DNA from: Escherichia coli
Lineage (GTDB): Bacteria > Pseudomonadota > Gammaproteobacteria > Enterobacterales > Enterobacteriaceae
NCBI RefSeq assembly: GCF_044324785.1
Contig: NZ_CP172127.1
Direction: 5' to 3' (one strand)
DNA length: 64,000 nt
Shown here: positions 27,001 through 30,000 of the stretch, piece by piece
Numbering within the stretch: position 1 is the stretch's first letter
Layout of the letters: every line of letters starts with the position of its first letter
Position numbers: made by a program

Positions 27001-30000
27001 ACCGTGTCCTGGGTGTTGGCGCAAATCTGTAGCAACACATCACCATGACATAACGCCGCATCCAGCGAGTCGTTGGGGAAACGCGTCATCTTCTGCAGCT
27101 TTTTTGGCATCTGTGGCGCAAGGCCAAAGCGCTCATTAAACAATGAGTGACCCACCGATAACGTGATGGTGAGATTATCGGGCGCAATGTAGCCGCCAAG
27201 AATGCCGGAATCGAGTGGTGGCAGGCGCGGATTTGGCGTTTCTGGTGCTGCTCCGCCCTGAGTCAGAAAAGCAAAACGCTGAGTCAACAAGCGAAACAAC
27301 CGCTCAAGATCGGCTTTATCGCTGGCAAGCACATCAAACGCCACCAGCATCATTGCGGCCTGTTGTGGCGTCAGGATCCCTGCCTGATGCTCACCATAAA
27401 ACGGCTGTTTCTCATTGCGTGCATCCGGTGAAAGCGTACCCGGCGCACTTTGCGTTTTTTGTGCATGAGCGACCGGACAACTTCCCGCCAGCGCCAGTGC
27501 ACCAATCCCTTTCAGTAAACGTCGGCGTGACGGTTCATTCACGCCGTTTTCATCTTTATACTGCATAACGTTTAATCCAGTCCCAGCACACCGCGAAGTT
27601 GCGCCAGATCTTCCGCCAGCGCAGTAATCGGTCCTTTCAGTGCATTCCGGTCGGCATCGGTCAATTTGTCGTAGGTTTCAAAACCGTCTTTAGTACGGTA
27701 TTTCGCCAGAATGGTATCGACCTTTTTAAAGTTGGCATCGACTTTTGCCAACAGTTCCGGGTTGGCTTTTTGCAGTTGTGGACGCAGTAGATCGACAATT
27801 TTCTGCGAGCCTTCAACGTTAGCCTGGAAATCCCACAGATCGGTGTGGCTGTAGCGATCTTCTTCACCGCTGATTTTGCTGGCTGCCACTTCCTCAATCA
27901 GTCCGGCTGCACCGCCGACCACTTTTGAAGGTGGGAAAGCCAGTTCACTGATGCGTTTTTGCAAATCGACCACATCGGTATAAAGCTGGTCAGCGTACTT
28001 ATCCATCCCTTTGGTGGTGTTGTCGCCAAACAATGCTTTTTCCAGACGGTGGAAACCGGTGAATTTCGGATCGGCGGCTTTTTGCTCGTAATCATCTTCA
28101 CGGGCGTCAATGCTGCCATCCAGATCGGAGAACAATTCAGCAATCGGTTCAATGCGCTCATAGTGCTGGCGCGTCGGTGCATACAGTGCTTTCGCTTTTT
28201 CGATATCGCCTGCTTTAATCGCGTCGGTAAAGGCTTTGGTGTCGGTCACCAGCTGTGTGGTTTCCGCCATGACATACGCTTTATATGCAGTAATTGCACC
28301 ACCAAGACTTAACAGCGCATCACTTTGCGCCGCATCCGCCGTTGCCTCACCTTTGACAATCAACTTCCCTTTCGGGTTAGTCAGCAGACCGCAGGTCATA
28401 TCGTATTCGCCAGGCTGTAAATTCGCCGTCATTTTCTGGCTAAAACCAGGGGCGATATTTTCCCGCTCTTCCACCACCATCACGCCTTTGAGGATCTCCC
28501 ACTCCAGCGCCTTCTGGCTGTGGTTCTGAATAATGAACTGTGTTTTCCCGGCGTTAACCGTAATGGTCATCGGCTCGCACTGCTTATCCGTCACGGTCAC
28601 TTTGACTTGCGGAATATCGGCGGCGTTAGCCATAAAAGCAGAAGAGAACAGCGCAGCCACGCTCAACTGCAATGCGTTACGGCGGAAGTTAATGGTCATG
28701 ACGAGACTATCCCTTTAAAGTATGTTGTAACTAAGCAAGAGTTTGCGTCGTATTTGCTACGCGGAGCGAGACGCTGTCGCCCCTGCGCGTGGTGGCAGGG
28801 CAAATGCCACCAGCGCCGGGATGAGATAAATAAACCAGACGGCGACTTCGCTGACACTTGGCGCTTCCTGATAGCCAAAAATCCCTTCCATCAGCGTGCC
28901 AAACAGCGAGTGAGTTGACAGCACCGCGCTCATATCGAAGGCGATTTCCTGAAAGTGGTTCCACAATCCGGCTTCATGAAATGCGCGAATAGCACCAGCT
29001 GCCAGCCCTGCGGCGACGAAGAGAATAAACAGACTGGTCCATTTAAAAAATGCACCAAGATTGAGGCGAATACCGCCCCAGTAGAGCAGGAAGCCGAGCA
29101 CCACGGCTGTAGCAAGACCGAGCATTGCACCCAGCGGCGGCCAGATCCCGACATCTTGTTGAAATGCCGCCAGCAGGAAAAAGACCGACTCCAGCCCTTC
29201 CCTTGCAACGGCAAAAAAGACCATCATCACCAGCGCCCAGCCATGATGATTTCCACGCTGCAATGCGCTATCGACTGCCTGTTCCAGTTGCACTTTGACG
29301 TTGCGCGACACTTTGCGCATCCAGAAAACCATCCAGGTAAGGATCACCACGGCGATCACCGCCACGATACCTTCAAACAGTTCCTGTTCTTTTTGCGGAA
29401 ATTCGCCGGTGGTTTCGTTAATGAAGATACCCAAGCCCAGGCACAACGCAGCGGCAAACAGCACGCCAATCCACATCACACCAATCCATCGGCCTCGCTG
29501 GGTACGCTTAAGATAGCTGGCAATCAAACTGACAATCAGCGCGGCTTCAAGTCCTTCGCGCAACATAATGAGAAACGGAACAAACATGCCACCCACCCTT
29601 AAACGTTTTTCTGAGTCAATCTATGCAAAGAAAAGTAAATCGCAGTGATAGCGATTATCATTACGGTAAAGAAAAATACAAGCGGAATGTTTATAAAATG
29701 ATGTTGGAATGTAAAAACGAGGAGATCAAATCAGGAGATAAAAGCGATTATTTTAAGGTATTTAGCTGACTTTTCGCCCGGCAGATGAAGCTTGCACGAA
29801 TGTTGGTGGCGACAAACTCGCTGCAGCGTGCCCCGAAGGGTTGAATTTTCATTTTGTCGTTTCACAAAAGAACGTTGTTTTTTGCTTATTAATAGATAGT
29901 GATAAGGTTGTGAATAAAATTATACCTCATCTCCTCATCGAATTTTTCGCCCCAACCTAAACAGGAGAAAACGTGTATTTAAGCCTGGAATGAGCGATTT

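Follow-up and report, generated by a model that had tools for sequence, protein, structure and literature searches.

Is efeU, a gene whose 830-nt copy in the Escherichia coli K-12 genome NZ_CP064679 RefSeq lists as a pseudogene with a frameshift, intact in the E. coli strain sequenced as assembly GCF_044324785.1, and, if it is, what does an open frame say about ferrous-iron uptake in this organism? We addressed this question in a stretch of 64,000 nucleotides from contig NZ_CP172127.1 (the window), in which a sequence-only reading had placed a single 276-codon efeU frame with both REGLE motifs at 28757-29587 and a Fur-box-like site upstream, and had taken the frame to imply a functional EfeUOB ferrous-iron transporter and to serve as a useful strain marker. 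Our analysis indicates with high confidence that 28757-29587 is the wild-type efeU heading the efeU-efeO-efeB operon of non-K-12 E. coli, the activity of its product being a prediction from sequence. The observation of an intact efeU is correct but ordinary; it has already been published, and nothing about efeU itself is new.

The gene lies on the minus strand, where translation of 28757-29587 gives 276 codons with no internal stop, followed by a TAG stop codon, so the frame proposed by the sequence-only reading is borne out and its strand is now assigned. A mechanically compiled list of open reading frames (ORFs) extends the same frame by three codons, to a GTG at 29596 (279 aa); the ATG at 29587 is the start used in all four RefSeq annotations compared, those of strains 042, O157:H7, APEC O1 and N3, and it follows AAGGGTGG, a sequence similar to a ribosome-binding site. 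When the 831-nt gene was aligned by MAFFT with its 830-nt K-12 counterpart, the two differed by 12 substitutions and one deletion. The deletion falls in codon 36 (GGT, Gly; 29480-29482 on the minus strand), where the alignment and the local sequences set side by side show that one G of the doublet at 29481-29482 is missing from K-12. As a result of this loss the K-12 gene reads TGG ATT GTG TGA and stops at codon 37, past the first transmembrane helix, and once the G is restored the K-12 protein is only one residue (L44) away from the EfeU encoded here. Comparison with K-12 and with functional EfeU sequences thus disclosed no overlooked frameshift in the present gene, and the contrast drawn earlier, of a pseudogene in K-12 and an intact frame in this strain, comes down to a 1-bp deletion on the K-12 side. 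The two loci are orthologous, differing upstream, where K-12 has a 376-bp segment in place of a 2.5-kb island.

At the protein level, EfeU is identical to that of E. coli 042 (WP_000497935.1) and differs from O157:H7 EfeU by one residue (F44L; 275 of 276 identical) and from APEC O1 EfeU, which stood in as a B2-type representative for Nissle 1917, by three. The O157:H7 protein (YcdN) shares the locus order putP - efeUOB - phoH, both REGLE motifs and the operon partners, and is set apart by L44, in contrast to the F44 found here and in E. coli 042. Profile searches assign the protein to the family: the Pfam FTR1 model (PF03239) is matched over residues 1-275 and profile positions 1-283 of 284 with E 1.8e-89 and 300.3 bits (cut-off 25.3), while the NCBIfam EfeU equivalog NF041756 and TIGR00145 score 330.5 and 349.9 bits against curated cut-offs of 255 and 303.8, respectively. 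A regular-expression search of the translation located both REGLE (RExxE) motifs expected from the earlier reading, the first at residues 10-14 (29546-29560, minus strand; codons CGC GAA GGA CTT GAA) and the second at residues 129-133 (29189-29203, minus strand; codons AGG GAA GGG CTG GAG). A Kyte-Doolittle scan with a 19-residue window, a crude method on which the helix count rests, resolved seven separate hydrophobic segments when the overlapping peaks at 175-203 were counted as one, and the two motifs fall inside segment 1 (residues 5-23) and segment 4 (residues 119-137). A sequence search for relatives of EfeU with solved structures found none.

Downstream of efeU, on the same strand, two intact genes complete the order and domain content of EfeUOB, with intergenic gaps of 57 and 5 nt. 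The second gene, efeO (27572-28699, minus strand), starts 57 nt past the efeU stop and encodes a 375-aa periplasmic cupredoxin and imelysin (M75) protein with the Pfam domains Cupredoxin_1 and Peptidase_M75, a match to the NCBIfam EfeO model NF007697 over positions 1-375 of 375 (773.6 bits), a hydrophobic N-terminus and an HRLE motif at residue 217. The third gene, efeB (26295-27566, minus strand), starts 5 nt past the efeO stop and encodes a 423-aa Tat-exported DyP-type haem peroxidase/deferrochelatase, as indicated by the Pfam domains Dyp_perox_N and Dyp_perox_C, by TIGR01412 (615.8 bits), by the twin-arginine sequence SRRRLL at residues 13-18 and by a full-length match to the solved structure of YcdB (PDB 2y4f, E 4e-265). 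The haem-site and catalytic residues D235, H329 and R347 are kept, together with the GFKDG motif.

The region upstream of efeU carries the Fur-box-like site noticed before. We scored all 19-mers of the window on both strands against the Fur consensus GATAATGATAATCATTATC, and the single best match is CGTAATGATAATCGCTATC (29647-29665, minus strand), which agrees with the consensus at 15 of 19 positions and stands 60-78 nt before the efeU ATG. This element and all 78 nt up to the ATG are identical in the present strain, K-12, 042, O157:H7, APEC O1 and N3. Within CGTAATGATAATCGCTATC, a GATAAT hexamer stands 16 nt downstream of TTGTAT, and this pair, overlapping the Fur site, may be the efeU promoter; since the scan for the sigma-70 consensus reported nothing there, its placement is our own reading of the sequence. 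The CpxR-box consensus is GTAAA-N5-GTAAA, and GCAAAGAAAAGTAAA (29625-29639, plus strand), a direct repeat 38-52 nt upstream of the ATG, departs from it at one position. Only four matches with one mismatch occur in the window, although the pattern is degenerate and the match weak, and at two mismatches the pattern becomes too degenerate to inform (88 matches against 61 expected). Cao et al. 2007 name CpxAR control of efeUOB in their title, and GCAAAGAAAAGTAAA would be weak evidence that fits such control in this strain.

Farther upstream, homology to K-12 ends about 165 nt before the efeU ATG, and the distance from the putP stop codon to this break is 376 bp in K-12 versus 2,514 bp here (29753-32266). 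The resulting 2.5-kb island is also present in 042, O157:H7 and N3, and was found in 645 of 5,426 complete E. coli genomes (about 12%). In APEC O1, whose putP-efeU spacer measures 219 bp, the sequence shared with the present strain reaches only some 130 nt upstream from the ATG. Because O157:H7, whose EfeUOB is named as functional, has the island, the arrangement is by analogy compatible with efeUOB activity.

The mechanism that these features suggest is the one described for other strains. EfeU is an inner-membrane permease in the Ftr1 family that has seven helices, of which the first and the fourth carry the iron-binding RExxE motifs. By analogy with O157:H7 and Nissle 1917, it would import ferrous iron together with periplasmic EfeO, with its cupredoxin and imelysin parts, and EfeB, a Tat-exported DyP haem peroxidase, and would do so mainly in aerobic, mildly acidic and iron-poor conditions. 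Fe-Fur, acting at the box 60-78 nt before the start codon, would repress transcription, and CpxAR would modulate it. We infer from these sequence features, and from the analogy with other strains, that this strain expresses EfeUOB and takes up iron through it, with Fur and CpxR binding upstream of the operon. The family, motif and operon evidence accordingly favors the functional transporter that the sequence-only reading had deduced from the open frame, as a prediction. The literature points in the same direction. PMC2808357, citing Grosse 2006, describes EfeUOB as an Ftr1-like ferrous-iron transporter that is non-functional in MG1655 through the efeU frameshift, and inactivation of the transporter by the K-12 frameshift is likewise stated by PMC7549933 and by Cao et al. 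2007 in their title. That title also presents the O157:H7 system as functional and acting at low pH, and, taken with PMC7549933, documents Fe(II) uptake at low pH for O157:H7 and for repaired K-12; operation in aerobic, low-pH conditions is reported in PMC5681537. An intact efeU was published earlier for 042 in its genome paper (PMC2808357) and for PCN033, an extraintestinal pathogenic E. coli (ExPEC) strain (PMC7549933), and the gene was the subject of Grosse 2006 and Cao 2007. Yeast Ftr1p and the FtrABCD systems of Bordetella, Brucella and Burkholderia, which have been described as similar to EfeUOB (PMC5681537, PMC4746246), share the FTR1 permease family and the RExxE motifs. Both are likened to it by description and differ in their partners, which are the multicopper oxidase Fet3p in yeast and FtrA, FtrB and FtrD in FtrABCD, rather than EfeO and EfeB.

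To place the intact allele within the species, we searched complete E. coli genomes with a 1-kb query around the gene, and efeU was present in 5,417 of 5,426 (best match 042, 99.9%); on this basis efeU is a core gene of E. coli. A 59-mer representing the K-12 deletion allele was matched at ≥99% in 368 of 5,387 genomes, at least one of these matches being partial, which puts that allele in at most 368 of the 5,417 genomes with efeU, and among the five deletion-allele genomes listed, four bear laboratory or culture-collection names (ER1709, AML003_ev02, ATCC 98082 and K-12). The corresponding intact 60-mer across the deletion site was found exactly in 3,842 genomes; the other 1,575 comprise the K-12 type and alleles with point changes, and the majority of genomes without the exact 60-mer differ merely by such changes. 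Since the deletion allele occurs in few genomes and the intact 60-mer in 3,842, intact efeU represents the wild type in E. coli, to which K-12 forms a derived exception. These counts bear on two other explanations of the open frame. That it could be a sequencing or assembly artefact is so improbable as to be negligible: thousands of independent complete genomes have the same sequence around codon 36, the whole gene differs from 042 at 1 nt and from N3 at 4 nt, and our search for points in favor of an artefact yielded none. It is also highly improbable that the intact frame represents a distinctive, strain-specific trait, gained or restored by reversion, and hence a useful marker. An intact efeU does set the strain apart from K-12 derivatives, and to that extent the earlier claim of a strain marker stands; beyond this it was overstated, as E. 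coli normally has the intact allele and the change occurred on the K-12 side. The nucleotide allele of efeU tells more than its intactness, and only 279 records reach ≥99% identity over the 1 kb around the gene.

A more substantive alternative accepts the intact efeU as wild type and holds that EfeUOB is nevertheless inactive or silent in this strain, through private substitutions in EfeB or through the 2.5-kb island that replaces what lies upstream of about -165. Several observations weigh against an active system. EfeB carries D144N, A405S, S418R and R422Q, none of which occurs in the five comparison strains (K-12, 042, O157:H7, APEC O1 and N3); compared with K-12, the sequence beyond about -165 has been exchanged; no promoter turned up ahead of efeU on its strand in the scan for the sigma-70 consensus; and a search for the Fur consensus with up to three mismatches found nothing, CGTAATGATAATCGCTATC having four. 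In addition, deletion of efeOB left the virulence of an ExPEC strain unreduced (PMC7549933), for which reason the physiological weight of EfeUOB may be small and its phenotype subtle. Against a silent system, the four EfeB changes leave D235, H329, R347, GFKDG and the full-length YcdB match in place, and the six lineages agree at every one of the 78 nt before the ATG, with about 130 nt shared, strains lacking the island included. Moreover, the island is arranged in the same way in O157:H7, whose system Cao et al. 2007 call functional in their title. We therefore regard an inactive or silent EfeUOB as unlikely, and retain the reading of a wild-type efeU heading a predicted active operon.

The relationship of the operon to its nearest genomes is not uniform along its length. 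The best complete-genome match to the window is strain N3 (99.2% over 24 kb), with which it is collinear over roughly 7000-55500, while the 8.4 kb flanking efeU are 98.0% identical to 042. Across the operon (26295-29587), identity forms a mosaic: efeU differs by 1 nt from 042 and by 4 nt from N3, whereas efeB differs by 58 nt from 042 and by 25 nt from N3. Because efeU is thus closer to 042 and efeB closer to N3, the pattern suggests past recombination inside efeUOB. Downstream of efeB, at 26189-26223, an Rfam scan of 25500-34500 gave a sub-threshold match (33 bits) resembling a repetitive extragenic palindromic (REP) element of the naRNA4 type, and the only other hit in that interval was a chance-level match to COG2908. 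Adjoining the REP-like match, N3 has just 8 bp where the window has 71 bp (26226-26296), and the difference between the two strains over 26189-26296 is probably one of REP elements.

The island adjoining efeU encodes an uncharacterised protein of 447 aa (30777-32120, plus strand), divergent from efeU. The spacer between the two genes (29588-30776; 1,189 bp) has a G+C content of 30-37%, contains no ORF longer than 58 aa and gave no Rfam match; RefSeq locus tags skip one number at this spacer in 042 and N3. Searches with the 447-aa protein returned no match in Pfam, NCBIfam or PDB sequences, and among PHROG families it matched only those of unknown function. Residues 245-427 consist of three C-terminal repeats of about 58 aa, a rare repeat type, which were spotted by eye and confirmed by multi-stretch HMMER matches; BLASTP of the protein against itself missed them. 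Searched exhaustively with HMMER, 1.84 billion cluster representatives yielded 46 relatives at E ≤ 0.001, in which the repeat region recurs two to six times and which reach lengths of 2,136 aa. Three of the eight relatives scanned have C-terminal SET domains, and the closest distant relatives, which bear the name of SET-domain lysine methyltransferases, come from Salmonella enterica subsp. indica and S. bongori; repeat arrays precede SET domains in these two, in Pantoea and in Paraburkholderia. The three-repeat module was modelled with a mean predicted local distance difference test (pLDDT) score of 92 from a 23-sequence alignment, as compared with a mean pLDDT of only 34 for a single-sequence AlphaFold model of the 447-aa ORF. 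When PDB was searched by Foldseek with the three-repeat model, no hit reached significance (best E 1.6). The individual repeats bear a weak resemblance to winged-helix domains, which suggests that they bind DNA. It is a long shot, in our view, that the protein is an undescribed DNA- or chromatin-binding module, perhaps acting as a local regulator of efeUOB or belonging, as a remnant or partner, to a SET-type effector aimed at the host, and any link between it and the regulation of efeU is speculation.

On the far side of efeB, the window shows a loss at about 22989-24443 (junction near 23294-23305), where pgaA, pgaB and the 5' end of pgaC are missing, together with the 5' end of the diguanylate cyclase gene next to pga. 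The same loss is found in N3, in which both remnants are annotated as partial, and most other genomes are about 6 kb longer at this position. From its gene content, the strain is probably unable to make or export the biofilm polysaccharide poly-β-1,6-N-acetyl-D-glucosamine (PGA). Nearby, at 21281-22891 on the minus strand, an EAL-domain phosphodiesterase gene has an intact 536-aa frame; it is annotated as frameshifted in N3, the closest genome.

For the biology of the strain, the consequences of these results are limited in scope and practical in kind. Being the normal condition in E. coli, an intact efeU gives no particular information on pathotype or lineage and conveys only that the strain is not K-12. 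On the strength of its sequence, the strain should be scored as EfeUOB-proficient; it would thus possess an additional, Fur-controlled route for ferrous iron at mildly acidic pH that is missing in K-12, and models or phenotype predictions derived from K-12 should not assume that EfeUOB is absent.
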